The position numbers were made by a program, and so were the translations under genes. This document shows positions 1 through 11,754 of a stretch of DNA of 11,754 nt, one piece after another. Within the stretch, counting starts at the first letter, position 1. The number at the start of each line of letters is the position of its first letter. The notes beneath the pieces are model-generated. The model was not told the DNA's origin and did no database searches. It was given only the letters and a program-made list of their open reading frames with translations. Source of the DNA: a virus (Duplodnaviria > Heunggongvirae > Uroviricota > Caudoviricetes). The stretch lies in the IMG/VR virus record IMGVR_UViG_2671181100_000003, positions 1 through 11,754 of that record; one strand, 5' to 3'.

Positions 1-179
1 ACACGCCCTTCGTTCTGCCAGAGCCTGAGCCATTTGAAAATAACATTATCATTGACGCCATTTTCACGTGCAATCTGTGCAACACAAGCTCCAGGTTGTG
101 ATGCCAGTTCCACCATACGAAGTTTGAATTCATTCGAATAGTTTTTACGAGGTTCTTTTCGCCAGTCCTGTAATTCCAT
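1..179 (-). CDS. IS-type transposase OrfA-like HTH protein, N-terminal fragment (frame runs off the left window edge)
   Basis: Minus-strand ATG at 179-177 opens a frame that continues to position 1. Translation MELQDWRKEPRKNYSNEFKLRMVELASQPGACVAQIARENGVNDNVIFKWLRLWQNEGRV shows the OrfA-type helix-turn-helix pattern of IS3-family (IS2-like) or IS66-family transposases (EFK..V.....PG..V..IAR..GV......W.....EG). Absent from the ORF track because it is truncated by the window edge. A possible element terminus (minus-strand TGACCGCCG, plus 244-252) lies ~70 bp upstream of the ATG. Confidence 0.4.
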   Translation of the reverse strand, partial: MELQDWRKEPRKNYSNEFKLRMVELASQPGACVAQIARENGVNDNVIFKWLRLWQNEGR

Positions 180-193
180 ACTTAGATGTCCGT

Positions 194-430
194 CTATATC
201 AGATGGGCGTCTAAGTTACCAATTCTCGTCTGATGGCTACATACGGCGGTCAGTTTACGCTTACGTTCAGTTGACACTGGTATTACTTTGTTTTCCTGTG
301 CTGCACATTTAGCTTCAAGCGCATCGAATTTACGCACCAGGTATTCAGCATCTGTTTCATTTACTTTCAGATCTCGCGGTACACATCTCCCACGAAGAAA
401 CCCTTCCATTTCGAAAACATTCATGCGCAT
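194..430 (-). CDS. Small hypothetical protein (76-78 aa) downstream of yfdR-like gene; 3' end possibly altered by the adjacent IS-like element
   Basis: ORF-track frame. Its start overlaps the yfdR-like stop (ATGA at 421-424), suggesting translational coupling with the likely start at 424. No recognisable motif. If the IS-like element ends near 252, the last ~19 codons would be IS-derived. Confidence 0.35.
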   Translation of the reverse strand: MRMNVFEMEGFLRGRCVPRDLKVNETDAEYLVRKFDALEAKCAAQENKVIPVSTERKRKLTAVCSHQTRIGNLDAHLI

Positions 431-957
431 TTGCGTAACTCCGATAACTCGTTAAAGCGTTCCATAAACATCCCGTAGGCATGGCCCGGTGCCAGTGGAA
501 TCACGTTGAACATCTCTGTTGCCGGGATACCTTCCAGTACAGGCCAGAAAGAGCCATCATCAAGCCCGAGATCGCGGCGTTCGGTTGCCAGCATGATGAG
601 ATCGGCATATTTCACGGGCGTACTCATAACTGGGGGTAACCCGTATTTCTCACGGATTACGGCGTCTATTTTTTCTTCCATTTGTTTATAGTCAGGAAGA
701 AGGCGTTTCAGTGGTGCGGGAATGTCCTGGCAATACGCTTCTGTTGCATCATGCATTAACGCTTCAAAAGCAAATTCCTGCGGCACCAGCTGGCTGCAAA
801 GAACCGCATGTTGGGCGACGCTGTAGAAGTGCGAAAGATGACCGGCAAAGCGACAGATATTTGAAAGGGAAACCGCGATATCGTTAATATCGATGTCGTC
901 TTTATTTATCCTGTCATAATAAAAATGCTTCCCGGAAAAAGTTTTAATAAATGACAT
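421..957 (-). CDS. yfdR: HD-domain metal-dependent phosphohydrolase (YfdR-like, putative 5'-deoxynucleotidase)
   Basis: ORF-track frame 421..984 trimmed to the ATG at 957 (MSFIKTF...), which has GGAG ~6 nt upstream, giving 178 aa. HD signature residues are present (AQHAV and LMHDATEAY). Length and sequence match my recollection of the CPS-53 prophage protein YfdR. Confidence 0.75.
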   Translation of the reverse strand: MSFIKTFSGKHFYYDRINKDDIDINDIAVSLSNICRFAGHLSHFYSVAQHAVLCSQLVPQEFAFEALMHDATEAYCQDIPAPLKRLLPDYKQMEEKIDAVIREKYGLPPVMSTPVKYADLIMLATERRDLGLDDGSFWPVLEGIPATEMFNVIPLAPGHAYGMFMERFNELSELRKCA

Positions 958-1052
958 TTTGTTCTCCACGTATATGCGCTGCACCGCGCTGAATTCTGGT
1001 AAAAAGAATCCCTCACCATCCGGCGATTATTGAGTAAATTACGTTTCCATAA

Positions 1053-1070
1053 ATGCCCCCGCAGGGACAT
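1053..1070 (-). terminator. Weak hairpin between yfdQ-like and yfdR-like genes (possible attenuator or partial terminator)
   Basis: Imperfect inverted repeat ATGCCCC/GGGACAT with a 4-nt loop, followed on the minus strand by UUUAUGG. Not a canonical U-tract. Confidence 0.2.
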
Positions 1071-1084
1071 TTGCAGTAATGAAA

Positions 1085-1909
1085 TCAGGCGGTGAAAGTG
1101 CCAATAAAGGTTTCTACTTTGCTGTCCTTGAATTTCTCAACAAGCAGATCACGAAATTCGTTAGCCATTTCTTCCTGCACCGCCTCCAGCTGAATAATGC
1201 GCAGAACCAGTACAGGACGATCGCCAGTGATAATACTGAGGCGTAATTTAAACGGACGTTCTTTCAGACCTTCAAACGGAACGCATTTAAATTCAAATGC
1301 CACTGGCATAATGTCTTTGGTTTTCGCTTCGACAGACTCCATCAGAGAGCGTTTGCCGCTGAAGTCATTGTCTTCAAAATCAGCGGTCTGGTTTGCTTCA
1401 ATCGTGATTTTACGGACAGCCGCAGCCGCTTTTGTTGCCTGAATAGCGTCACCATTAGCATCAAAGCCCACAAGGTAGTCGGCCCAGTCTTCAATCCATT
1501 CTGCTAGTGACTTCTGGGAGTTACGCTCGCCGTTAACAGACAACAGAGCAGAGAACGGTGCTGTCTTTTTCAGTTTGAGTGTGGCGGTGTTATCTGCGTG
1601 ACCTGGTTCATCAATAGTACCTAGGTTAAGCACACTGACGGCACGCATATTATCAGCATCGATAAAGCAGCGGGTGCCTTCATCTGCAAGATCTTTAGAA
1701 TAACGGGTAAAATCATCGATGCTGGCAGTGGAAAGCGCACCACGGAAACGGAAGCGATTTAAATTAAATTTTTCCAGATCATGAATGCGGAAATTCTCAG
1801 GCAATGCCACAGCATCGGCACCAATCTTACTGATAATTTCATTAACACCCTGAGCAGAAATAAGGGCATGGATTTGATTAATTGCGGTTGCGTCTAAGTT
1901 CTGAGACAT
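1085..1909 (-). CDS. yfdQ: DUF2303-family phage early protein (YfdQ-like), function unknown
   Basis: 274-aa ORF with GAGGA 5 nt upstream of the ATG. Length and sequence ([21 protein letters not shown]...) match my recollection of YfdQ from prophage CPS-53. Confidence 0.75.
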
Positions 1910-1974
1910 AATAAGTCCTCACTATATAAAGATATTCAGTGATGAGATAAATAATCAGTTAATTAAAAACGATA

Positions 1975-2337
1975 TTAACGACCTGCTGCGCGGAGTTTTC
2001 CGTCAGGTTCACCGGCAAGAGTCAGCAACTGTCCCTGGTCTTCCTGCAGAATAGTCAGGCGACCACCGCGATTGACATACATCGGCGTTTCGGTGGTGTC
2101 TTCTTCGGAAATTTTCCCGCGGTTAGTCGGGCGAACATATGAGAGTTTGTGTTTGATTTTCACTCGGTTCTCATCAAACGGTTCGATTTCTAGGTTGAGC
2201 GAGACCTTACCTTTGGTTTTCGTGTTCATCACACCGGAAGCGACTTCACTGAGAACTGCGCCGATTTTGGTTTCAAATACGCCGCCGTCCAGCTCCCCGA
2301 TAAATGCCTGCACATCAGTACTGCGTTCGCTAGCCAT
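1975..2337 (-). CDS. yfdP: YfdP-like early protein (120 aa), function unknown
   Basis: ORF-track frame 1975..2655 trimmed to the internal ATG at 2337 (MASERSTDVQ...), which has GAGGAG ~7 nt upstream. The 106 upstream codons are P/G/R-rich read-through of GC-rich non-coding DNA. Confidence 0.65.
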   Translation of the reverse strand: MASERSTDVQAFIGELDGGVFETKIGAVLSEVASGVMNTKTKGKVSLNLEIEPFDENRVKIKHKLSYVRPTNRGKISEEDTTETPMYVNRGGRLTILQEDQGQLLTLAGEPDGKLRAAGR

Positions 2338-2385
2338 TTTGCTGCTCCTCATCATATCGACCCTGCAAGGTCGGTTAGTTTCTCC

Positions 2386-2666
2386 ACAAAACAGAGAAGA
2401 ACACCTGCGGTGACTGCCGCCCGGATGGATTGGGTTATGAGCCCGTCGTCCGGTGATGCTCTTCTCTGTTTTGTAAAAAGGACGGTACCAGCCGGAAGCA
2501 AGGGTACAAGCTGGTACCGCCAAGACTACACACAGCATAAAGTTGTGGTGCCGGGTGCCTCCCGGTGCCTGGCGAAGGTTGCACACCAGGCGGGTGGGTA
2601 TCCACAGAAGGTCGACTGTCAGCCTCAACCTTAACCCGCGTGCGCTGAGCCGCATTCACCACAACG
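2386..2666. other. GC-rich non-coding stretch with nested perfect inverted repeats (candidate structured leader RNA or regulatory element of the leftward early operon)
   Basis: Perfect inverted repeats: 15 bp (2386-2400 ACAAAACAGAGAAGA / 2460-2474), 10 bp (2483-2492 CGGTACCAGC / 2510-2519), 9 bp (2542-2550 GTTGTGGTG / 2657-2665), 7 bp (2575-2581 / 2627-2633), plus short GC hairpins at 2551-2565 and 2567-2591. ORFs open in several frames here encode P/G/R-rich, non-protein-like sequence. Confidence 0.3.
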
Positions 2667-2806
2667 CTAAGGATTCTCTCTGGTTGAAAATACTTAGCTG
2701 TTATGTGCCTGCTTTTAGCCACATCAGGCGAGGTGGACCTAGTTATTCCCCAACAACAAGGATTCGGTTAATCTGGATATCCCCAACAACAATAAGAGTA
2801 TTCAAT

Positions 2807-3322
2807 GTGATCGCTGAATTAACGGCAGCAATGACGGCTATTCGTGAAATCGCCCAGATTGCAAAACTAATGAACGAGGCAAAAACTCAAGCTGAAGTAA
2901 ATGCGGCTATTGGTGAGCTGAACTCAAAGCTTGCGTCTATTCAGCGCGAATGCGTGTCTCTCGTTGAACTGCTGGGCTCTTATCAAGAAATAAATGCTTC
3001 TCTCAAAGCTAAAATTGCAGAATTCGAAAACTTTGAGGCTCAGACGGAAGGCTATATCCTTAACCAACTTGAGTCGGGTACTTTTGTATACTCGAAGGAG
3101 GTAATCGTGAACGGTGACAGCATAACCATGCATCTTTGCCCAAAATGTTTTGGACAAAAGATAGTATCGATACTTCAACCATTCCCGGTTAGCGAAGATG
3201 AGCTTTTTCATAAAAGCAGGTGCCTCCACTGTGAAAATAAGTTTCTGATGAATAAAAATCCAGATTACGTATCGCCTCCATCCATTGAGGAGTTGGCCAG
3301 AAAACTTAACGGCAATCTGTAG
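2807..3322 (+). CDS. Coiled-coil protein with C-terminal CxxC...CxxC zinc-ribbon (accessory gene in the immunity region, function unknown)
   Basis: ORF-track frame 2543..3322 trimmed to GTG 2807 (AAGAG 8 nt upstream) or ATG 2831. The N-terminal ~80 aa are heptad-like and A/E/K/L-rich; the C-terminus carries CPKCF and CLHCENK ~24 aa apart. GC is ~42% against ~52-55% in the replication genes. Convergent with the repressor, own terminator downstream. Confidence 0.55.
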   Translation: MIAELTAAMTAIREIAQIAKLMNEAKTQAEVNAAIGELNSKLASIQRECVSLVELLGSYQEINASLKAKIAEFENFEAQTEGYILNQLESGTFVYSKEVIVNGDSITMHLCPKCFGQKIVSILQPFPVSEDELFHKSRCLHCENKFLMNKNPDYVSPPSIEELARKLNGNL

Positions 3323-3347
3323 ATTGCTACTGTTGTGGATATCCAGA

Positions 3348-3360
3348 TTGTTAAAGAGCG
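3348..3360 (-). promoter_or_regulatory. boxA-like element (minus-strand CGCTCTTTAACAA), candidate nut-type antitermination site
   Basis: Minus-strand 13-mer CGCTCTTTAACAA matches the boxA consensus (rrn boxA TGCTCTTTAACAA; lambda nut boxA CGCTCTTA...) as I recall it. It is flanked by hairpins at 3362-3378 and 3312-3327 and lies downstream of a candidate leftward promoter at 3468-3496. Confidence 0.35.
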
Positions 3361-3361
3361 A

Positions 3362-3384
3362 AGCGTCCTGTAGGGCGCTTTTTT
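3362..3384 (+). terminator. Rho-independent terminator of the coiled-coil/zinc-ribbon gene
   Basis: Stem AGCGTCC / GGGCGCT (7 bp, one G-U) with loop TGTA, followed by TTTTTT at 3379-3384, ~40 nt after the stop codon at 3320-3322. Confidence 0.5.
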
Positions 3385-3465
3385 GTTGCTAACGAATCAT
3401 CCTGGACTTCATATGCCCCAGGCGGCTACTTCGTGGGCGTCCTGCCTGTTCGTTATCTTTGATAT

Positions 3466-3553
3466 AAAATCTAACTTAACTTAGCTATTATGGCAAGAGA
3501 AAACACCAAACTTTTCTTAGTTCGGTGCCTTAGTTAGAGAAGAGAGGTCTTAG
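3466..3553 (-). promoter_or_regulatory. Candidate left operator/promoter (OL/PL-like): leftward promoter flanked by CTTAG half-sites
   Basis: On the minus strand: -35 TTGCCA (plus 3491-3496), 17-bp spacer, -10 TAGATT (plus 3468-3473). CTTAG occurs four times within 3480-3553 (3480, 3516, 3529, 3549), the same pentamer that forms the operators between the repressor and cro. Confidence 0.3.
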
Positions 3554-4176
3554 AGTTCGTATTGAACTCCTTTGACTACACCAATGATAAGGCAATTACC
3601 ATTGATAGGGATGTTGGGATACCGAGGATTTAATGGCACTAAAAACTTTTGAGGGCCATCGATGACTAATTTTTTTACTGTAGCTTCGTTTGTTCCATCA
3701 AGTCGAGCGATGACTATTTTTCCATGACGAGGTTCTGCATCTGGATCTACAATCACTGTTGCGCCTTCTGGTATTGTTGGGAGGCCATTAGGGTTAGTCA
3801 TGGAGTCACCTTTAACCTCTAATGCAAATGAGTTATCACCAACCTTTAATGATGTATCTACCCACTTGTCCACTTCACTAAACACTTCTGCTGCCCTGCA
3901 CTCAGTAAACTGCCCAGCCTGAACCCACGATATTACAGGAACTCTGCGCATGTTTGTGACGAGTTTGCCTTCAAACTCAGCACCATAAAGAATGTAATCT
4001 ATTGACGTATTGAAGAACTTCGCTAATTTCGAAAGTGCCTCCCCACCAGGGGTATTGATGTCTTTCTCCCAGTACCCCACAGCAACGTCGCTTACTCCAC
4101 AAAATTTACCCAATTCTTTCTGGGACGTTCTGGTAACTCTTCTCAGAGCTTTTATACGCTGACCAACCGTTTCCAT
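3550..4176 (-). CDS. Phage repressor, cI/LexA-type (N-terminal HTH + C-terminal S24 autopeptidase domain)
   Basis: 208 aa. N-terminal HTH (QKELGKFCGVSDVAVGYWEKD), candidate Ala-Gly cleavage site (VQAGQF), S24 catalytic motif GDSM and Lys in TVKKL. Divergent from a cro-like gene across an operator region. Confidence 0.9.
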   Translation of the reverse strand: METVGQRIKALRRVTRTSQKELGKFCGVSDVAVGYWEKDINTPGGEALSKLAKFFNTSIDYILYGAEFEGKLVTNMRRVPVISWVQAGQFTECRAAEVFSEVDKWVDTSLKVGDNSFALEVKGDSMTNPNGLPTIPEGATVIVDPDAEPRHGKIVIARLDGTNEATVKKLVIDGPQKFLVPLNPRYPNIPINGNCLIIGVVKGVQYEL

Positions 4177-4195
4177 AGGAGCACCATTTCTTTAA

Positions 4196-4266
4196 TTGCT
4201 AAGTAATCTTAGTTTTTATTGACCAAAGATAGATTTGTAATTAGCATCTAACAAAACTTAGTTTGG
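4196..4266. promoter_or_regulatory. OR-like operator/promoter region between repressor and cro
   Basis: Inverted half-sites CTAAG-TAAT-CTTAG (4199-4212), perfect palindrome AAACTTAGTTT (4254-4264), CTTAGTTT repeated at 4208 and 4257. Rightward promoter candidate -35 TTGACC (4219-4224), 17-bp spacer, -10 TAGCAT (4242-4247), upstream of the cro ATG at 4274. Confidence 0.5.
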
Positions 4267-4273
4267 AGAGCGT

Positions 4274-4474
4274 ATGACAACTGACGATATCGAAAGCTAC
4301 TTCGGCAGTATTGAGAAAGTTGCTGCTTTTTTCGGCATAACAACTGAAGCCGTTTATCAGTGGCGAAACCGTCCGGGCCAGTTAATTCCAAAAGGACGTG
4401 CAGCAGAAGCTGCATATAGAACTTGCGGACGGTTGCCATTTAAACCTGAGCTTTATGAAAAATCTAATGGATAA
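4274..4474 (+). CDS. cro: Cro-type repressor (P22 Cro-like)
   Basis: 66 aa; DIESYFGSIEKVAAFFGITTEAVYQW resembles P22 Cro (DVIDHFGTQRAVAKALGISDAAVSQW). Divergent from the repressor; GGAGAG upstream. Confidence 0.8.
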   Translation: MTTDDIESYFGSIEKVAAFFGITTEAVYQWRNRPGQLIPKGRAAEAAYRTCGRLPFKPELYEKSNG

Positions 4475-5063
4475 ATCGATTAACAGAAACCACAGAACGA
4501 TGAGGCTAACCGTGGGTAAGCATCACTGGAAAGTAGAAAAACAGCCTGAGTGGTACGTGAAAGCTGTCAGAAAAACTATCGCAGCGTTGCCGGGTGGTTA
4601 CGCTGAAGCTGCTGACTGGCTGGATGTAACAGAGAACGCATTATTTAACCGCCTTCGTGCCGATGGCGATCAGATTTTCCCGCTGGGATGGGCAATGATT
4701 TTGCAACGTGCTGGTGGAACTCACTTCATTGCTGACGCTGTGGCGCAGTCTGCAAATGGCGTCTTTGTGTCTCTTCCTGATGTCGAGGATGTGGACAACG
4801 CCGATATCAACCAACGCCTGCTGGAAGTCATTGAACAGATCGGCAGTTATTCAAAACAGATTCGTTCAGCAATTGAAGACGGTGTAGTGGAACCGCATGA
4901 GAAGACAGCAATTAACGATGAGCTGTACCTCTCAATTTCGAAGCTGCAGGAGCATGCAGCACTGGTCTACAAAATCTTTTGCGTTTCAGAAAGTAGTGAC
5001 GCCCGCGAGTGTGCAGCTCCGGGCGCCGTGGCGTGTCGTGACTGTGGAGAAACTAACGCATGA
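4455..5063 (+). CDS. CII-position early regulatory protein (CII/CP76-like by position; start uncertain)
   Basis: ORF-track frame 4398..5063. The GTG at 4398 has no usable SD spacing and overlaps cro by 77 nt; ATG 4455 or ATG 4467 (overlapping the cro stop) are likelier starts. About 200 aa, first gene after cro. Family assignment is by position and vague recollection only. Confidence 0.45.
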
Positions 5064-5398
5064 ACAGTTTAACAACACACTACCGTCGCTCGCAACTGAT
5101 TGCGCTTCCTGTACCGGGTGGAAAAGCGAAGGTGGAGTATTGCTATGCAGTAAATGTACCAGGTGACAGGGAAATTGTAACCCACAGCTTTGCAGAGTGG
5201 GCTGTGGGTGATTTCAACCGGCAGAAGGAGACAGTCCTTTGCGACAAGTTAACCGCTGGTTCAAAGATCACTACGGAGTGCCCGTCAGAGTCATTCGTTG
5301 GGAGCCGGAAACACAACGTGTTATCTACCTCCGCGAAGGCTATGAGCATGAGTGCTTCAGCCCGCTCGAACAGTTTCGTCGTAAATTCAGGGAAATAG
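5060..5398 (+). CDS. Hypothetical protein (112 aa as called); only the N-terminal ~55 aa look protein-like, possible frameshifted or overlapping gene
   Basis: ATGA overlap with the preceding stop (5060-5063). The N-terminal part ([52 protein letters not shown]) looks coding; the C-terminal ~50 aa are S/A-rich low complexity and overlap a better-looking frame (see 5239..5418). Confidence 0.3.
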
Positions 5399-5418
5399 AG
5401 GTCGGTCATGAGCACTAA
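5239..5418 (+). CDS. Small hypothetical protein (59 aa) from a TTG start; alternatively the C-terminal half of a frameshifted gene starting at 5060
   Basis: Not in the ORF track (no ATG). AAGGAG at 5225-5230, 8 nt before TTG 5239. Translation [59 protein letters not shown] is compositionally protein-like. Stop at 5416-5418 overlaps the O-like start. Confidence 0.3.
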
Positions 5419-6364
5419 ATTAACCGGCTATGTATGGGATGGTTGCGCTGCATCAGGCATGAAATTATCCAGCGTGGCAATTATGGCCCGCCTGGCTGAT
5501 TTCAGTAATGACGAAGGTGTGTGCTGGCCATCAATTGAAACCATTGCCCGCCAGATTGGCGCGGGGATGAGTACCGTCAGAACGGCTATCGCACGGCTGG
5601 AAGCAGAAGGCTGGTTAACGCGTAGGGCGCGTCGCCAGGGTAACCGCAATGCGTCGAATGTTTATCAGCTTAACGTTGCGAAGCTTCAGGCAGCGGCATT
5701 TTCTCAACTGTCAGATTCTGACCCGTCAAAATCTGACGCATCAAAATCTGACGCATCAAAATCTGACCCGTCAAAATTTGATGCGTCGAAATCTGGCAAA
5801 AAAGCGGGTTTTCACCCGTCAGAATCTGGTGGGGATCCGTCAGTAAAATCAAAACATGATCCGTCAGATAAAAAAACTTCTCGTCCGGACGCTTCGCAAC
5901 CGGACACGCAGACGGCTGAACAGGATTTTTTAACTCGCCATCCTGATGCGGTTGTATTCAGCCCTAAAAAGCGCCAGTGGGGGACGCAGGATGATTTGAC
6001 CTGCGCACAGTGGCTCTGGAAAAAAATCATCGCCCTGTACGAGCATGCCGCCGAATGTGACGGCGAGGTGGTTCGTCCCAAAGAACCGAACTGGACAGCC
6101 TGGGCAAACGAAATTCGCCTGATGTGTGTGCAGGATGGTCGTACTCATAAACAAATCTGCGAGATGTACAGCCGCGTCAGTCGCGATCCGTTCTGGTGCC
6201 GTAACGTGCTCAGCCCGTCGAAGCTGCGGGAAAAATGGGATGAGCTTTCCCTGCGCTTATCGCCGTCCGTCAGCACGTACACCGAAAAACGCGAAGACCC
6301 GTACTTCAAAGCCAGTTACGACAACGTGGACTACAGCCAGATCCCGGCAGGATTCAGGGGGTGA
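5408..6364 (+). CDS. Replication initiator, lambda O-like (N-terminal HTH DNA-binding domain, repeat linker, C-terminal domain)
   Basis: 318 aa, GAGGT 5 nt upstream. N-terminal HTH (SSVAIMARLADFSNDEGVCWPSIETIARQIGAGMSTVRTAIARLEAEGWL) is typical of phage replication initiators. An internal tandem-repeat block encodes (S/P)KSDA pentapeptides, like the iteron-encoded linker of lambda O. Position after cro/CII. Confidence 0.7.
   Translation: MSTKLTGYVWDGCAASGMKLSSVAIMARLADFSNDEGVCWPSIETIARQIGAGMSTVRTAIARLEAEGWLTRRARRQGNRNASNVYQLNVAKLQAAAFSQLSDSDPSKSDASKSDASKSDPSKFDASKSGKKAGFHPSESGGDPSVKSKHDPSDKKTSRPDASQPDTQTAEQDFLTRHPDAVVFSPKKRQWGTQDDLTCAQWLWKKIIALYEHAAECDGEVVRPKEPNWTAWANEIRLMCVQDGRTHKQICEMYSRVSRDPFWCRNVLSPSKLREKWDELSLRLSPSVSTYTEKREDPYFKASYDNVDYSQIPAGFRG
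5711..5800. repeat. Six tandem 15-bp repeats inside the O-like gene: candidate replication-origin iterons
   Basis: Units TCAGATTCTGACCCG / TCAAAATCTGACGCA (x2) / TCAAAATCTGACCCG / TCAAAATTTGATGCG / TCGAAATCTGGCAAA. Each junction forms the dyad CGTCA-AAATC-TGACG. Degenerate copies and an A-rich stretch follow to ~5880. Confidence 0.5.
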
Positions 6365-6366
6365 TC

Positions 6367-6855
6367 ATGAGTCTTTTGAATGACGTTCAGAAATTCATTG
6401 AAGCCCATCCGGGGTGTACTTCCGGAGACATTGCGGATGCTTTTGCAGGTTACTCACGACAGCGCGTTCTGCAGTCAGCAAGCAAGTTACGTCAGAGTGG
6501 GCGTGTGGCTCACCGTTGTGAAGGGGATACACGCAGACATTTCCCGCGGCTGACTGAGATACCGCAGGAGCCGGAACCGCAACCAGTTCGTGAATCCAGA
6601 CCTGTGCGCAATTTCTATGTCGGCACTAACGATCCCCGGGTGATTTTGTGCCTGACCCGCCAGGCGGAAGAACTGGAGTCCAGGGGCTTATACCGTCGTG
6701 CTGCAACGGTGTGGATGGCGGCATTCCGTGAAAGCCACTCCCAGCAAGAGCGAAACAATTTTCTTGCGCGTCGTGAGCGGTGTTTACGGAAAAGCAGCAA
6801 GCGCGCTGTATCGGGTGAAGAGTGGTATCTGTCAGGGAATTACGTGGGGGCTTAA
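6367..6855 (+). CDS. Putative transcriptional regulator: N-terminal winged-helix-like region plus PerC-like C-terminal motif
   Basis: ORF-track frame 6361..6855 trimmed to ATG 6367 (GGGGG 5 nt upstream, overlapping the O-like stop). The C-terminal motif AEELESRGLYRRAATVWMAAF resembles the PerC/Pch activator signature as I recall it. The size (162-164 aa) matches my recollection of YfdN. Confidence 0.55.
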   Translation: MSLLNDVQKFIEAHPGCTSGDIADAFAGYSRQRVLQSASKLRQSGRVAHRCEGDTRRHFPRLTEIPQEPEPQPVRESRPVRNFYVGTNDPRVILCLTRQAEELESRGLYRRAATVWMAAFRESHSQQERNNFLARRERCLRKSSKRAVSGEEWYLSGNYVGA

Positions 6856-7181
6856 TGACGACGTTAACTCAATGCCAGCAGCAGGTGCTGGATATGCTGA
6901 TTTCTTATCAGAAAGAACGTGGCTTCCCGCCAACCAATCAGGAGGTGGCAACCATGCTGGGATACCGTTCAGTGAATGCAGCGGTGGAGCATCTTCGCGC
7001 ACTGGAGAAAAAAGGCGTCATCACGATAAAGCGTGGCGTGGCCCGGGGCATCACGCTTCATACCGCGGTGAAGGACGACGACAGCGAGGCGGCCGGGATT
7101 ATCCGCGCACTGCTTGCTGGTGAGGAAAACGCCAGGCTGCGTGCAGCCCACTGGTTACATGAGAGGGGCCTGAAAGTATGA
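6855..7181 (+). CDS. LexA DNA-binding-domain-like protein lacking the S24 peptidase domain
   Basis: ORF-track frame trimmed to ATG 6855 (TAATG overlap with the upstream stop; GGGGG upstream). LTQCQQQVLDMLISYQKERGFPPTNQEVATMLGYRSVNAAVEHLRALEKKGVITIKRGVARGITL aligns by eye with the LexA N-terminus ([65 protein letters not shown]). The 108-aa product stops before any protease domain. Confidence 0.75.
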   Translation: MTTLTQCQQQVLDMLISYQKERGFPPTNQEVATMLGYRSVNAAVEHLRALEKKGVITIKRGVARGITLHTAVKDDDSEAAGIIRALLAGEENARLRAAHWLHERGLKV

Positions 7182-7567
7182 AGCTGATCCTGCCTTTTCC
7201 GCCCAGCGTGAACACGCACTGGCGACACCCCAACAAAGGGGCGTTTGCTGGTAAGAGCCTGATAAGCGCGGCGGGGCGAAAATTCCAGAGCGCGGCGTGC
7301 GCAGCAATAGTTGAGCAGTTACGTCGTCTGCCAAAACCAACGTCGGCACCTGCTTCAGTGGAGATCGTGTTGTTTCCTCCGGATAACCGGATCCGCGATC
7401 TGGACAACTATAACAAGGCGCTGTTTGACGCCCTGACCCACGCGGGTGTGTGGGAAGACGACAGTCAGGTGAAAAGAATGCTGGTGGAGTGGGGACCGGT
7501 TATCCCGGAAGGGAAGGTCGAGATCACTATCAGTAAGTACGAGAAACCGGCGGGTGCAGCCGCCTGA
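7178..7567 (+). CDS. rusA: RusA-family Holliday junction resolvase
   Basis: 129 aa with ATGA overlap to the upstream gene. Motifs LPFPPSVN, DLDNYNKALFDALT and GVWEDDSQV match the RusA family. Confidence 0.85.
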   Translation: MKLILPFPPSVNTHWRHPNKGAFAGKSLISAAGRKFQSAACAAIVEQLRRLPKPTSAPASVEIVLFPPDNRIRDLDNYNKALFDALTHAGVWEDDSQVKRMLVEWGPVIPEGKVEITISKYEKPAGAAA

Positions 7568-7586
7568 TTAAGAGGAGAAACGAAGT

Positions 7587-8384
7587 ATGAATAATCTGAT
7601 GGTTATTGATGGTATTGAAGTTCGTCGTGATGCTTATGGGCGTTACAGCCTGAACGATCTGCACAGGGCTGCCGGTTCTCTGGATAAACATAAGCCTGCA
7701 TTCTGGCTCCGCAATGAGCAAACTGAACGTTTAATAAGCGAGTTGCAGATTTGCAACTCGGTCAATATAGAGCCAGTTAACGTTATTCGTGGAGGAAATA
7801 ACCAGGGGACGTATGTCTGCAAAGAACTGGTGTATGCCTATGCAATGTGGATCAGCCCGTCATTCCATCTGAAGGTGATCCGTACTTTCGATATGGTAAC
7901 CAGCACACCGGAAAAATTATCCGGGCAGGCTGCTGACAAGATGCAGGCTGGCGTGATCCTGCTGGACTTTATGCGCCGGGAGTTAAACCTGTCTAACTCT
8001 TCAGTGCTTGGTGCCTGTCAGAAACTCCAGGAGGCTGTTGGCTTACCGAATCTGGCACCGCGCTATGCCATTGATGCTCCTGCTGACGCGCCTGATGGCT
8101 CAAGCCGCCCCACGCTGTCACTGAGTGCACTGCTGAAGCAGTATGGTATCCGCCTGACAGCTAATCAGGCATATCACCAGATGGTGAAGCTGGGGATCGT
8201 CGAGCAGCGCGAACGATACAGCCGTACCGCGATTAACAACATCAAAAAATTCTGGTCACTGACAGCGAAAGGCTGCATGTTCGGCAAGAACATCACCAGT
8301 CCCGCAAATCCGCGCGAGACGCAGCCGCATTTCTTCGAATCCCGATTCCCTGAGCTGTTAAAGCTGCTCGATACCGTTCATTGA
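7587..8384 (+). CDS. KilA-N domain protein (N-terminal KilA-N DNA-binding domain, uncharacterised C-terminal domain)
   Basis: 265 aa with strong RBS AAGAGGAGAAA. N-terminal YSLNDLHRAAG...KPAFWLRNEQTERLI...IRGGNNQGTYVCKELVYAYAMWISPSFHLKVIRTFD fits the KilA-N fold. Confidence 0.8.
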   Translation: MNNLMVIDGIEVRRDAYGRYSLNDLHRAAGSLDKHKPAFWLRNEQTERLISELQICNSVNIEPVNVIRGGNNQGTYVCKELVYAYAMWISPSFHLKVIRTFDMVTSTPEKLSGQAADKMQAGVILLDFMRRELNLSNSSVLGACQKLQEAVGLPNLAPRYAIDAPADAPDGSSRPTLSLSALLKQYGIRLTANQAYHQMVKLGIVEQRERYSRTAINNIKKFWSLTAKGCMFGKNITSPANPRETQPHFFESRFPELLKLLDTVH

Positions 8385-8385
8385 G

Positions 8386-9381
8386 GTGACCGTGAGAGCG
8401 CTACTGACCCCTGAAATTGCCCCGCGTATGGGGATCGTATTGTTCAGGCCAGGTTCAGAGCTGATGCCCCTGTTTATGCAGGGCCGTGTTCTGCTGGAGC
8501 CTGAGCCGGAGCGTTATTCATCTTTCGCCAGTGGTGCCGTTCCTGCGGCATCACAACCGCTGGCGGATGATCCTGCCGTTCTGGCCGTGTTCCGTAATGA
8601 GGCAGTGATTCGTCGTGCTGGTGGGGTGGAATGTCTTGAAAGCTGGTTACTTCGTGAAAAAGGCTGCCAGTGGCCTCATTCCGACTGGCACAGCGAGAAC
8701 ATGACCACAATGCGACACGCGCCGGGCGCAATCCGTCTGTGCTGGCACTGCGATAACCAGCTTCGCGATCAGTTCACGGAACGGCTGGAATCAATGGCAA
8801 CGGATAACTGTGCCCGCTGGGTGTTGTCTGTTGTGCGTCGGGATCTCGGTTTTGATGATAGTCACGTTGTGACAATGCCGGAACTGTGCTGGTGGCTGAT
8901 TCGTAATGATCTGGCAGATGCCTTACCGGAAAGTGCAGCCCGTAAGGCACTGAGATTACCGAAGCCTGTTGTGCCGTCTGTCACCCGGGAAAGTGACCTT
9001 GTGCCTTCGGTTCCTGCCACCAGCATCATCCAGGATAAGGCGAAAAAGGTGCTGGCGCTGAAAGTGGATCCGGAGTCGCCGGAGTCTTTTATGTTACGCC
9101 CAAAACGCCGCCGCTGGGTTAATGAAAAGTACACGCGCTGGGTTAAGACACAGCCGTGTGCATGTTGTGGAAAGCCTGCTGATGATCCCCACCACCTGAT
9201 AGGTCACGGTCAGGGTGGAATGGGTACAAAAGCGCATGACCTCTTTGTGTTGCCTTTGTGCAGAAAGCATCACGACGAGCTGCATGCGGATACCGTGGCA
9301 TTTGAAGAGAAGTATGGCTCCCAACTGGAGCTGATATTTCGTTTTATCGATCGCGCGCTGGCGATTGGTGTGTTGGCCTGA
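8386..9381 (+). CDS. DUF968-like nin-region protein with C-terminal Cys/His-rich (HNH-like) motif
   Basis: 331 aa from GTG 8386 (start uncertain; internal ATG at 8428). C-terminal CACCGKPADDPHHLIGHG...LCRKHHDELH suggests a zinc-binding nuclease-like motif. Family assignment from memory of YdfU-like prophage proteins. Confidence 0.55.
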   Translation: MTVRALLTPEIAPRMGIVLFRPGSELMPLFMQGRVLLEPEPERYSSFASGAVPAASQPLADDPAVLAVFRNEAVIRRAGGVECLESWLLREKGCQWPHSDWHSENMTTMRHAPGAIRLCWHCDNQLRDQFTERLESMATDNCARWVLSVVRRDLGFDDSHVVTMPELCWWLIRNDLADALPESAARKALRLPKPVVPSVTRESDLVPSVPATSIIQDKAKKVLALKVDPESPESFMLRPKRRRWVNEKYTRWVKTQPCACCGKPADDPHHLIGHGQGGMGTKAHDLFVLPLCRKHHDELHADTVAFEEKYGSQLELIFRFIDRALAIGVLA

Positions 9382-9398
9382 TTTGGTGGAGAAAGTTG

Positions 9399-9764
9399 AT
9401 GCGTGATATTCAGATGGTTCTGGAGCGTTGGGGAGCATGGGCGGCGAGTGATAGTTCTGGAGTAGACTATTCGCCTATAGCTGCTGGGTTTAAGGGGCTT
9501 CTTCCCTACACAAGCAAAACACGTCAGGCTTGTTCAGATAGTGATGCATTAATTATTGAAGGTTGTCTTGCTCGTCTAAAGCAAAAAAAGCCAGATGAGC
9601 ACTCGCTGCTTGTGGCACATTATTTATACAGAATATCCAAGCGTAAGATTGCAAAGGTGCGTGGAAAGGATGAAAAATTGGTACGCATAGAAATACAACT
9701 AGCCGAAGGATTTATTGATGGTTGCCTTTCAATGTTGGATGTTAACCTTGAAATGGACGCTTAG
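9399..9764 (+). CDS. Late-gene antiterminator Q (small Q family)
   Basis: ORF-track frame 9396..9764 trimmed to ATG 9399 (GGAG 7 nt upstream). The N-terminal motif DIQMVLERWGAWAA...DYSPIAAGFKGLLP matches my recollection of the small antitermination-Q family. Last gene of the rightward early operon. Confidence 0.7.
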   Translation: MRDIQMVLERWGAWAASDSSGVDYSPIAAGFKGLLPYTSKTRQACSDSDALIIEGCLARLKQKKPDEHSLLVAHYLYRISKRKIAKVRGKDEKLVRIEIQLAEGFIDGCLSMLDVNLEMDA

Positions 9765-9770
9765 GGTTGC

Positions 9771-9800
9771 ACAGGTTGGCCCCATATGAGGCCAACCTGT
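9771..9800. other. Perfect 11-bp inverted repeat (hairpin) between convergent Q and membrane-protein genes
   Basis: ACAGGTTGGCC (9771-9781) / GGCCAACCTGT (9790-9800) with an 8-nt loop. It starts 7 nt after the Q stop and abuts the membrane-protein stop codon (9800-9802). No adjacent U-tract on either strand, so not a canonical intrinsic terminator. Confidence 0.4.
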
Positions 9801-10261
9801 CACAAGTGGGGGAAGATTTTTCGTAACACTAACCAACACCTTCCGAAGGTATATAGCGAAATTATAAGGGAGGATAAGCCTAACAGTATGAATAGGAAAT
9901 CAATAGGTTTGCCCGCAACAATAACATCATCTGGTAGAAACATCGCTATCAATGGAAATATACATGCGACGATGAGAGTTAACCCTGTTGAAAGTAATCG
10001 ATTTACCAGAGTTGGTAACACGTTGTTTTGCTTAAGGGCATTAATTGCTCCTTCCTTATCGCTGTTTGCACTACTAAATATAGATATTGCAGCCAGAACA
10101 AAACCAAACAGGATGCCTGATATAGTCGAGAGCACCCCCGCTGTTGTGAGTACGTCAGCATGCTTCATCGGTTTAAACAGTTTTGTCGCTGCATAGGTCA
10201 ACAGAATCCAGAGGACGCATTTCCAGAGAAAAGTGGCTAATTCTCTCATTGTGTCCTCCAT
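9800..10261 (-). CDS. Small integral membrane protein, four predicted TM helices (second gene of the two-gene cassette)
   Basis: 153-aa ORF; the likely start is the second ATG at 10249 (GGAGG 5 nt upstream), giving 149 aa. Four hydrophobic segments (~residues 10-28, 37-63, 85-109, 120-140) with short loops and no soluble domain. Separated by ~20 nt from the upstream 313-aa gene. Confidence 0.6.
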   Translation of the reverse strand: MEDTMRELATFLWKCVLWILLTYAATKLFKPMKHADVLTTAGVLSTISGILFGFVLAAISIFSSANSDKEGAINALKQNNVLPTLVNRLLSTGLTLIVACIFPLIAMFLPDDVIVAGKPIDFLFILLGLSSLIISLYTFGRCWLVLRKIFPHL

Positions 10262-10270
10262 GCTTGGTTA

Positions 10271-11212
10271 TTAGTCTCTGCTAGCGAGCTCATACTGTGC
10301 AAGATAGTTCGCGTTATCAATTTTAGCAGATATCATCGCCGTTCTGATATCAGAATCGGATGGATAACCGCTTTTGACAATGATTGTCTTTGTACTGACC
10401 AATACTTGGTCAAGTAGACTTTTGGGCGTTCTATTGGATGGCTCTGTTACATCAATTTTTTTAATTTTTAGACCTCCAGAACCTTTTGGAAAAAGTTCAA
10501 GTAGTTCCTTAATAGCATCGGTGACAGAAGTTTTTAGATAGTTAAAACCTTGTTTTTTCGGGCGAATCCGACCTCGCATATTTAATCTTAGATGCGACCC
10601 GCCCATACCAACAACCATGTCAATAATTTCATTAGCTAAAGGGTTTTTAATCTTATAATTAGCTTTGTTAAAGTTTCTTGGAGCAGCAACTATAAGATCG
10701 AAACTACGTAGGATATTTCCGTCCTCAAGCAGTTCCTTCATGCTCTCTTGTTTCCAAATGGCTTCAAAAGTGACGCTTTTTAAATCAGTTTTGTTATACA
10801 AAATGAATGCCAGATCATTTACTTTGGGCCCTATATGGTTGAGGGTCATAGCTAATAAATCCGTTTCGTAGTAATAGATAAAATATGTTCTTTCAACTAC
10901 AGAATCTTTATCATTTAAAGGAATTGTTCTCTCACTACCTGTAGCATCCTCGATGAACGGTAGTAGGCATTCCCTTCTCCACGATACGTAACCAAAGTAA
11001 CATTGCAGTGTGGTATCTTTTTGAAGAATAACTAACTTTAACCCTCGATTTGGGGTGTCTGTTGTGTAAGTTATTGGAAAAGTTACAGTATCTGCTGTGG
11101 TCATTTGCTCAAAGGCTAGTTTTGCAGCAGATGTGCCATCTTTTTTGCTTCCATTACCAGTGAAAAAACCAACTCTCACTCGCCTAGTTTTATTCTTATT
11201 TTCTGTACTCAT
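10271..11212 (-). CDS. Uncharacterised 313-aa soluble protein (first gene of the two-gene cassette)
   Basis: Long ORF with no recognisable catalytic motif by eye (no Walker A, no clear nucleotidyltransferase GS...DxD). K/N/T-rich, GC ~35-42%. Opposite in orientation to all flanking phage genes. Confidence 0.65.
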   Translation of the reverse strand: MSTENKNKTRRVRVGFFTGNGSKKDGTSAAKLAFEQMTTADTVTFPITYTTDTPNRGLKLVILQKDTTLQCYFGYVSWRRECLLPFIEDATGSERTIPLNDKDSVVERTYFIYYYETDLLAMTLNHIGPKVNDLAFILYNKTDLKSVTFEAIWKQESMKELLEDGNILRSFDLIVAAPRNFNKANYKIKNPLANEIIDMVVGMGGSHLRLNMRGRIRPKKQGFNYLKTSVTDAIKELLELFPKGSGGLKIKKIDVTEPSNRTPKSLLDQVLVSTKTIIVKSGYPSDSDIRTAMISAKIDNANYLAQYELASRD

Positions 11213-11227
11213 TATCGATCCGAAATA

Positions 11228-11257
11228 ATTTTAGCAACCGTGTGAAAAATACAACAA
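11228..11257 (-). promoter_or_regulatory. Candidate promoter of the two-gene cassette
   Basis: Minus-strand -10 TAAAAT (plus 11228-11233) with -35 TTGTTG (plus 11252-11257, 18-bp spacer) or TTGTAT (15-bp spacer). Leader to the ATG would be under 15 nt and the RBS is weak, so confidence is low. Confidence 0.2.
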
Positions 11258-11334
11258 AAAAAAGAGGAAATCATTAGCGCGGTCCGCAAAAAACATTGTA
11301 ATCTGTTAAGAGTGGTTACTTCGCCACACAACTT

Positions 11335-11359
11335 AAACCCGCCGCTGAGCGGTTTTTTT
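11335..11359 (+). terminator. Hairpin plus T7 tract (intrinsic terminator-like) on the plus strand upstream of the small ORF at 11481
   Basis: AAACCCGCCGCTGAGCGGTTTTTTT: stem CCGC/GCGG (extendable with a bulge) then seven T. Would terminate plus-strand transcripts that have crossed the cassette antisense; could be a tR'-like site. Confidence 0.35.
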
Positions 11360-11409
11360 GTACCTGTAAACCTGGTGCAGTACAGTAAACACGCTGGTGG
11401 TCGTGAATA

Positions 11410-11436
11410 CTGGCTTTTTATCTTGCTGGCTTTTTA
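11410..11436. repeat. Direct repeat CTGGCTTTTTA x2 (16-bp period) upstream of the 11481 ORF
   Basis: Exact 11-bp copies at 11410-11420 and 11426-11436; candidate regulator binding sites or part of a late promoter/qut region. Confidence 0.3.
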
Positions 11437-11480
11437 GACAAGAGTTATTGGTATGTCATGTTAACCAGAAGGGAAAAAAC

Positions 11481-11684
11481 ATGCTAAAACAGCAAGATAT
11501 GACAGAAACCGCCGCCGCAGTCCTTCATTTCTTACCTGCTGACAAGTGGGTAACGCCACGCATGATGACGAGAACTACCGGAGTAAGCGAAGCCCGGTGC
11601 CAGTTAATACTGACTCAGTTAGTTCTGGCGGGTCTGGCGAAGGATAACGGCGGGTACGGGAATAAATTCAGACGCTGCCAGTAA
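11481..11684 (+). CDS. Small hypothetical protein (67 aa), possibly winged-helix DNA-binding
   Basis: ORF-track frame 11397..11684 trimmed to ATG 11481 (AAGGGA 6 nt upstream). Translation MLKQQDMTETAAAVLHFLPADKWVTPRMMTRTTGVSEARCQLILTQLVLAGLAKDNGG looks like a small winged-helix regulator. Confidence 0.45.
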   Translation: MLKQQDMTETAAAVLHFLPADKWVTPRMMTRTTGVSEARCQLILTQLVLAGLAKDNGGYGNKFRRCQ

Positions 11685-11754
11685 TGGCGGTTTCCTGCTG
11701 TGAAAATGGGCGGCTGGTGGGTGTTGGTAGCACCTGCCAGCCATTCGCTCATGC
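11684..11754 (+). CDS. Possible start of a further gene (partial, runs off the right edge)
   Basis: ATG at 11684 overlaps the preceding stop (TAATG); the frame stays open to the window end (MAVSCCENGRLVGVGSTCQPFAH...). Too short to judge. Confidence 0.2.
   Translation, partial: MAVSCCENGRLVGVGSTCQPFAH

Follow-up and report, generated by a model that had tools for sequence, protein, structure and literature searches.

In phage lambda, replication begins with a two-domain initiator, O, whose origin iterons lie between the two protein domains within the O gene itself; O follows cro and cII in the rightward early operon, the loader gene P overlaps its stop codon by 4 nt, and lambda replication is independent of host DnaC. 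Other enterobacterial modules, including those of Rac (YdaU-YdaV), Gifsy-1/2, and Shigella phage 75/02 Stx ("Eru4"), code for their own DnaC paralogue beginning 2–6 nt after the initiator stop, and E. coli dnaT likewise lies 2 nt upstream of dnaC. The dnaC gene is domesticated from phage (PMC5109545), and DopC-DopE is a domesticated lambda O/P-like pair, for which the parallel between O-P, DopC-DopE, and DnaT-DnaC has been drawn (Brezellec et al. 2017, PMC5509034); the mechanism by which DnaT brings in DnaB/DnaC is described as unknown (PMC13377028; PMC5778457). Here we describe the replication module in an 11,754-nt stretch of Caudoviricetes DNA (IMG/VR record IMGVR_UViG_2671181100_000003, positions 1 to 11,754; hereafter, the window, to which all unprefixed coordinates refer), where an O-like initiator gene (5408–6364, rightward, 318 aa) is found with no recognizable helicase loader, and where the initiator ends in a short peptide of the type that ends host DnaT.

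Gene calls and family searches identify the window as the early region, 11.7 kb in length, of a temperate phage of enterobacteria. A CPS-53/KpLE1-like prophage in E. coli strain 1283 matches it at 100% identity, with RefSeq gene calls that agree with ours, and the region is 94–97% identical in nucleotide sequence in phages SfII, SfIV, mEp460, and several ECOR-derived phages, and ~95% identical over 65–68% of its length in Stx2a and Stx2c prophages. Matches to the segment 5408–6855 occur in 3,388 of 5,426 complete E. coli genomes. The module is an ordinary one, shared at 94–97% nucleotide identity with SfII/SfIV/SfV, CPS-53 (KpLE1; yfdO/yfdN), and the "Eru6" replication region of Stx phages, and found both in serotype-converting phages of Shigella and in a subset of Stx phages; the Eru6 representative differs in having an extra Rha/antirepressor gene, a dam methylase, and an IS629 insertion in the PerC gene. 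Earlier papers already provide its sequence, its annotation ("O protein family," "primosomal protein," yfdN), and its place in a catalogue of replication regions (PMC3851460; PMC8951638). They list the genes only, and neither the missing loader nor a DnaT-type tail is discussed in them.

A sequence-only reading of the window had proposed that the module contains an O-like initiator but no recognizable helicase loader, with no AAA+ or P-like protein anywhere between cro and Q, and both parts of this proposal hold. We searched all ten rightward open reading frames (ORFs) with Pfam, PHROGs, and NCBIfam, and the remaining ORFs with Pfam, and found no member of the DnaC/IstB AAA+, lambda P, or DnaB families; phmmer searches of every stop-to-stop frame in the window, using E. 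coli DnaC and DnaB, lambda P, and three phage DnaC-like proteins as queries, were also negative. DnaC, P, and DnaB were also not found in 80 close IMG/VR relatives with ~5 kb of flanking sequence on each side, the search totaling 811 kb over the window, SfIV, and these relatives. Loci retrieved by alignment of the initiator C-terminal domain were all 98–100% identical; they confirm that the lineage is loader-less, while contributing no further diversity. The sole match to a DnaC reference among the 82 close loci is marginal (E 5e-4; locus L088, 7129–7675). Situated ~1.7 kb past the initiator, where the contig ends, it may represent part of an unrelated AAA+ or IstB gene.

One explanation for the absence is that the module is a decayed remnant, or, as the sequence-only reading had allowed, that its loader lies elsewhere. 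The related K-12 elements CPS-53 and e14 are defective, and the window covers only 11.7 kb. We nonetheless regard this explanation as extremely improbable, as SfIV, which is UV-inducible, forms plaques, has been propagated, and lysogenizes (PMC3851460), carries the same module with an initiator C-terminus identical to that of the window, and no loader or helicase was found in its whole genome (39.7 kb) by annotation, phmmer, or Pfam searches of the unknown ORFs. The window ORFs are also intact, and the segment is present in the thousands of E. coli genomes noted above. Because viable SfIV carries this module in a genome without a loader, it is a working initiator-only replication module. The idea of a loader encoded elsewhere is rejected on the evidence of SfIV and the 80 close relatives, and the other alternative offered in the sequence-only reading, direct recruitment of host DnaB/DnaC, is the better of the two.

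The initiator has the same overall plan as lambda O and was correctly placed as O-like: it matches phrog_391 ("replication initiation O-like") over its full length (E 2e-134), and BLASTP aligns it to lambda O with 30% identity over 216 aa (E 2e-26), spanning residues 70–282, which include the linker and the C-terminal domain. RefSeq names the protein "helix-turn-helix domain-containing protein," and RAST-style records call it "Primosomal protein I." The N-terminal part is where it departs from lambda O. Its winged-helix domain spans residues 1 to ~95, with a DNA-binding core at residues 23–70 (5474–5617) that matches Pfam HTH_36 (E 4e-11), and more weakly GntR, PaaX, DnaD_N, and RP-C; Pfam did not find Phage_rep_O (PF04492) in this N-terminus, whereas in the same library lambda O matches PF04492 at E 6e-36. 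A sequence search of the PDB gave weak MarR-type matches, on the winged helix only. Residues ~96–186 form a low-complexity linker with SKSDA repeats.

The C-terminal half consists of two parts. The first is a globular helical domain (residues ~187–285; 5966–6262), which the AlphaFold2 (AF2) model predicts as six helices with a pLDDT of ~90, and whose residues 187–282 pair with lambda O 187–270 within the BLASTP match; the shared positions follow the pattern WG..DL..A.W ... NW..WAN.IRLM..DGR.H...C ... FW..N.LSP.KLR.KW, and similarity to the lambda O domain is present in all 82 close loci (phmmer E 3e-23). A profile of this domain retrieves 7,864 clusters at 50% identity, in which it is almost always C-terminal in proteins of 270–380 aa. 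Foldseek comparison of the domain model with the PDB gave no match below E 1, and therefore no solved relative, and in BFVD all of its neighbors are phage replication proteins. There is no support for a globular fold of the DnaD or DnaT type, and Pfam searches of the isolated C-terminal half at E up to 10 found no family, including DnaT PF17948. The second part, residues 286–318 (6263–6361), is a tail modeled with low confidence (pLDDT 40–60), whose sequence varies among homologues except at its extreme end. The sequence-only reading had placed the C-terminal domain at about residues 190–318; the model refines this to a globular domain at ~187–285 followed by the tail.

The conserved extreme end of the tail is SQIPAGFRG (residues 310–318; 6335–6361), which runs to the stop codon and is identical at 8 of 9 residues to SQIPPGFRG, the end of E. 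coli DnaT, with both at the exact C-terminus. Alignment of the initiator and DnaT families with hhalign pairs the last 20 columns only (probability 94%, E 1.4e-7). No alignment of the initiator to DnaT residues 1–159 was obtained, a region which includes the N-terminal oligomerization and PriB-binding domain and the acidic linker, and the DnaT three-helix domain that binds single-stranded DNA (ssDNA; PF17948) was absent from the initiator in a search that detected it in the replication protein of Salmonella phage SPN1S (E 4e-18). With the similarity confined to these last columns, the initiator is ruled out as a DnaT homologue, and the "primosomal protein I" label is therefore a tail-only artifact for this protein. 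Close homologues of the window initiator end in RCVNHISEPDTEIPPGFRG or RDVNAISEPDNTIPEGFRG, and within DnaT itself S167, P169, D170, I173, P174, G176, F177, R178, and G179 are invariant. We assign the window tail to the DnaT type because IPxGFRG is present and the 82 close loci are loader-less.

We found no assigned partner for DnaT residues 154–179 in the literature on DnaT and the preprimosome, and a literature search on the PGFRG motif returned only collagen papers. Literature on DnaT together with phage initiators yielded no description of the tail, with one review, "Bacteriophage replication modules" (Weigel & Seitz 2006), falling outside the coverage, and the literature search found no paper on an "initiator-solo" class.

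Tails of the DnaT type end initiators with many different bodies. A tblastn search with the DnaT tail found it at the ends of initiators of Rac (YdaU), Gifsy-1/2, SPN1S-like phages, Shigella 75/02 Stx, mEp460, and Klebsiella phages, all of which infect Enterobacterales; the gene that follows codes for a DnaC homologue in Rac, Gifsy-2, and 75/02, and for none in SPN1S. In IMG/VR, all 120 matches to P-D-x-x-I-P-x-G-F-R-G-stop lie at the true C-termini of initiator-like proteins of 260–400 aa, and the tail is carried on at least 20 different N-terminal bodies. Lambda O (locus L089, 887–1786) also ends in a conserved peptide, LDLTNTDWIYGVDL, and a third terminal motif, HWNSxEAWExx[LI], recurs in the same way. 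We scanned IMG/VR for all three motifs and classified the surrounding loci (~10 kb, both strands) by phmmer with the same six reference proteins used above; since the sampled loci are not independent, we also clustered the initiators at ≥50% identity, giving 27 clusters.

The loader class tracks the tail. Of 109 loci with the DnaT-type tail (PDxxIPxGFRG-stop) and enough flanking sequence, 65 have a DnaC-like gene, none has a lambda-P-like or DnaB-like gene, and 44 have no loader; where the DnaC-like gene is present it mostly starts 2–6 nt after the initiator stop, and the phage DnaC-like proteins are 49–51% identical to E. coli DnaC over their full length. Among 103 loci with the lambda O-type tail (LDxxNTDWxxG(+3)-stop), 101 have a lambda-P-like gene and two have no loader, with no DnaC-like gene downstream and no DnaB-like gene in any of them, and two of the loci also having a DnaC-like gene elsewhere in the locus. 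The HWNSxEAWExx[LI]-stop tail is accompanied by a lambda-P-like gene in all 101 loci, and by DnaC-like or DnaB-like genes in none; we had considered this tail as a signal for a DnaB-helicase partner, an idea rejected when it proved to be a second P-associated tail. Both P-associated tails are found on many unrelated bodies, with a lambda-P-family gene next in 202 of 204 loci (L211–L450), and they may be P-docking peptides. The association also holds at the cluster level, where the DnaT tail occurs with DnaC in 10 clusters, without a loader in six, and with P in none, and the lambda O and HWNS tails pair with P in 18 cluster instances.

In three of the clusters, DnaT-type and P-associated tails occur together, and there the loader always switches with the tail. 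One has the body type of the window initiator (HTH_36 with a lambda O-type C-terminal domain), and includes 10 loci with the HWNS tail, all 10 with P, together with 16 loci that have the DnaT tail and DnaC and 14 that have the DnaT tail and no loader; some initiator plus DnaC-like modules share the window body. In alignments, the bodies are colinear up to ...KLREKWDEL..RL (...YQGLFKPKF in the Gifsy type), and only the last 15–25 residues are exchanged. The gene following loader-less DnaT-tailed initiators is Ren-like or unrelated, and a 140-aa ORF found after many of them was rejected as a loader, being Ren-like (phrog_142).

Exchange of the other part of the protein is also seen. A 290-aa relative in IMG/VR (locus L156) shares the N-terminal domain and SKSDA/iteron linker of the window initiator, joined to an unrelated C-terminal domain, and it ends in a canonical DnaT tail (...RDINAISRPDTTIPPGFRG) with a PerC-like gene next; comparison of the two sequences suggests that the globular C-terminal domain can be swapped with the tail type retained.

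A survey of GTDB contigs, with one genome per species, gave 120 hits to the DnaT-type tail pattern, almost exclusively in Enterobacterales. Host DnaT accounts for 83 of the hits, with dnaC immediately downstream in 78 and a flank too short to judge in five; another 35 are prophage initiators, which are accompanied by a DnaC-like gene in 27 cases and by none in six, and three are chance matches outside Enterobacterales.

These observations change which part of the initiator seems informative. The sequence-only reading had offered direct recruitment of host DnaB/DnaC by the W/C-rich O-like C-terminal domain as one possibility; the comparisons support recruitment of the host proteins, but not the W/C-rich domain as the telling element, since lambda O has the same domain and yet works with P. 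By sequence comparison the informative element would be the extreme C-terminal ...IPxGFRG, common to host DnaT and in phages found only with DnaC-type loaders or with none. P-type and DnaC-type loaders deliver the same DnaB in the same host, and therefore the simplest role for a tail that tracks the loader is docking, either on the loader or on some surface that only the loader-DnaB complex presents. Where a DnaT-type tail occurs and the phage encodes no DnaC, the host supplies the only DnaC-family protein available, and we propose recruitment of the host DnaB6-DnaC6 complex. Such recruitment agrees with the phage origin of dnaC (PMC5109545) and with the published parallel between O-P and DnaT-DnaC (PMC5509034). 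We favor, with moderate confidence, the interpretation that the window represents an initiator-only lambda-O-family module that recruits host DnaC-DnaB by mimicry of DnaT.

The tail might instead bind another partner of DnaT, such as PriA, PriB, PriC, pockets of the SSB-tail type, or DnaB, with loading through the restart primosome or by direct capture of DnaB. The tail, an acidic stretch followed by I-P-x-G-F, loosely recalls the SSB C-terminal peptide DDDIPF. DnaT is a hub that binds PriA, PriB, PriC, and ssDNA (PMC5778457), and removal of its residues 154–179 weakens cooperative ssDNA binding (PMC4132743). We judge a partner of this kind unlikely, since the tail occurs with P at none of 109 loci and the other tails do so at 202 of 204, all against the same background of DnaB, PriA, PriB, and PriC, which points to the loader itself; moreover, in the cryo-EM structure of the preprimosome it is the globular C-terminal domain of DnaT that contacts PriA, and the linker that contacts PriB.

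Several considerations count against DnaC docking by the tail. The window tail retains only the last 7–9 residues of the DnaT motif and is missing the invariant S-x-P-D part, which is present in close homologues, and the window initiator accordingly did not match the PDxxIPxGFRG-stop search pattern. The deletion result just cited points to a possible role for the DnaT tail in binding DNA or in oligomerization (PMC4132743), and a 2026 preprimosome paper favors the DnaT N-terminal domain as the recruiter of DnaB/DnaC (PMC13377028). The codons for the tail adjoin the loader gene, such that mosaic recombination could move both together without functional coupling; the covariation of tail and loader is thus partly confounded by linkage, in addition to the non-independence of the sampled loci. 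Finally, we infer every contact of the tail from sequence comparison, and it could touch DnaB, PriA, PriB, PriC, or another protein instead.

A candidate origin lies within the initiator gene itself (5696–5880), comprising iteron-like 15-bp repeats and an A-rich stretch. There are six to seven copies of the repeat at 5696–5795, and further copies at 5809–5828 and 5848–5866; Tandem Repeats Finder (TRF) reports a period of 15, 5.3 copies, and a score of 102, and the array contains repeat families D1–D3 and internal dyads I1–I9, flanked by the A-rich stretch at ~5836–5880. We take the array as a candidate origin because it lies in the linker between the two protein domains, the same place that the lambda ori iterons occupy inside O.

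The proposed course of events is as follows. Upon derepression, the rightward operon (cro, the ymfL/cII-like gene, a small ORF, and the initiator) would be transcribed, and the initiator would bind the 15-bp array (~5696–5866) through its HTH_36 winged helix, oligomerize there, and open the adjoining A-rich DNA, much as lambda O does at ori-lambda. At the point where lambda O hands over to P through its C-terminal end, ...LDLTNTDWIYGVDL, the window initiator, with no P gene after it, would present ...IPAGFRG-COOH. This peptide would dock on DnaC or on DnaB6-DnaC6, delivering the host helicase to the origin without a phage loader, and mimicking the presumed recruitment of DnaB-DnaC by DnaT in replication restart. 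The two would differ in targeting, as PriA and PriB bring DnaT to forks and the window initiator would use its own sequence-specific winged helix. The module is thus predicted to need host DnaC, in contrast to lambda.

A different route to the helicase is used by several iteron plasmids (P1, F, and pSC101), in which loading depends on DnaA. By analogy, the initiator might only open the origin and leave DnaA to recruit DnaB-DnaC, with the tail irrelevant. However, the initiator gene and its surroundings are free of DnaA boxes (TTWTNCACA), the lone match in the window, at 11241, being the chance expectation, and this scheme leaves unexplained a conserved terminal peptide that follows 25 freely varying residues. 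We consider it quite improbable.

The gene immediately downstream of the initiator (6361–6855, rightward; 164 aa; YfdN-like) overlaps the initiator stop codon by 4 nt and is translationally coupled to it. The sequence-only reading described its product as a winged-helix/PerC-like regulator rather than a loader, and the searches and structural model agree. The protein matches Pfam PerC (PF06069) at residues 100–152 with 39.1 bits against a cut-off of 22.6, as well as phrog_1324 ("transcriptional activator"), and RefSeq calls it yfdN, a PerC family regulator; no Pfam family was found in its N-terminal half at E up to 10. The AF2 model (pLDDT 76) predicts an N-terminal winged helix (residues 1–62) and a C-terminal three-helix domain, and Foldseek matches it in the PDB to ArsR/SmtB, BlaI/MecI, MarR, PadR, and DriD regulators, with no loader among the matches.

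Its position nevertheless invites the suggestion that it serves in place of P as a non-canonical adaptor or loader: it stands where P stands, has the 4-nt overlap that P has with O, and is kept in all 82 close loci, alongside an initiator that retains the lambda-O-type C-terminal domain. We find this very improbable. PerC scores above its cut-off, and a transcription-factor winged helix joined to a helical PerC domain is unlike any solved loader; the 44 other loader-less DnaT-tailed loci have a Ren-like or unrelated gene in this place, leaving no conserved partner. In the Stx2a prophage Stx2a_WGPS2 (AP012537.1; locus L002, 4264–6065), IS629 splits the PerC-like gene, which would count against a loader role if that prophage is viable.

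DnaT mimicry by the window initiator may be one instance of something broader. Tentatively, and with somewhat more doubt than belief in the proposal taken as a whole, we suggest that the interchangeable C-terminal peptides of 10–20 residues in enterobacterial phage initiators, including those of the lambda-O family, constitute a "loader code." Under this proposal ...PDxxIPxGFRG-COOH would select DnaC-family loaders, whether encoded by the phage or by the host, and ...NTDWxYGVxL-COOH and ...HWNSxEAWExxL-COOH would select lambda-P-family loaders; the restart primosome would have its missing DnaC-docking element in the invariant tail of E. coli DnaT, and the dnaT-dnaC operon would be a domesticated phage initiator-loader pair. 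The gene arrangement is common and already catalogued, but the tail-loader rule appears to be undescribed. The nearest precedent is DopC, an O-like HTH_36 protein with DnaT-derived C-terminal sequence, which differs in having a reported DnaT C-terminal domain and a P-like partner (PMC5509034); the window initiator has a lambda-O-type domain, is DnaT-like in its terminal peptide only, and has no loader gene. The SPN1S initiator (locus L007, 1748–2563) is different again, with a full DnaT domain in addition to the tail. No loader gene adjoins this type of replication protein (also in loci L146 and L165), whose make-up suggests a phage counterpart of DnaT with a DNA-binding module added at the N-terminus.

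The remainder of the window has a conventional early-region layout. A CI/LexA-type repressor gene (3550–4176, leftward; Pfam HTH_3 and Peptidase_S24) would hold the replication operon off in a lysogen, and a cro-like gene (4274–4474, rightward; Pfam P22_Cro, E 4e-11) heads the rightward operon that carries the initiator; a PR-like promoter match upstream of it (4219–4247) is a consensus match only, at chance frequency. A YmfL/CII-like gene ending at 5063 follows, and then two small rightward ORFs that overlap in different frames, one at 5060–5398 (phrog_1170, E 5e-70), which is the SfIV orf40 call, and the other at 5239–5418 (Pfam DUF4222, E 9e-19), which is the RefSeq call. Probably either one of these annotation traditions is wrong or the first gene is really only ~63 aa (phrog_20047).

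Beyond the PerC-like gene are rightward genes for a LexA-DNA-binding-domain protein (6822–7181), RusA (7178–7567), a KilA-N protein (7587–8384), a DUF968/HNH protein (8386–9381), and antiterminator Q (9396–9764). The first of these (119 aa) is conserved after the PerC gene and has the LexA DNA-binding domain alone (PF01726, E 4e-19), without the S24 peptidase; translation probably begins at the ATG at 6855, which overlaps the PerC-gene stop codon, and the domain content of the protein suggests that it could occupy LexA boxes without being cleavable. Just after Q are two leftward ORFs (9800–11212), for a predicted membrane protein of 153 aa and a protein of 313 aa without a Pfam family, in a segment with a GC content of 0.37–0.41 compared with ~0.55 in the adjoining DNA; the segment resembles an accessory (moron) or defense cassette gained from elsewhere. 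Between DUF2303 (yfdQ) and the repressor, the long ORFs at 2543–3322 (rightward) and 1975–2655 (leftward) have no convincing family, and RefSeq shows only a 171-aa hypothetical protein (~2807–3322), yfdP, and a frameshifted pseudogene in this stretch; the long ORF calls are probably spurious in part.

If the tail acts as we propose, loader-less temperate phages start replication by copying the terminal peptide of host DnaT. The tail-loader rule makes DnaT-DnaC recruitment testable, and offers a handle on how the PriA-PriB-DnaT preprimosome recruits DnaB-DnaC and on which part of lambda O contacts P. Dependence on host factors would then be readable from sequence, with loader-less DnaT-tailed phages expected to be dnaC(ts)-sensitive, unlike lambda, and a peptide that blocks DnaC docking might be designed. 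The same dependence would bear on prophage induction, including that of Stx phages with the same type of replication module.

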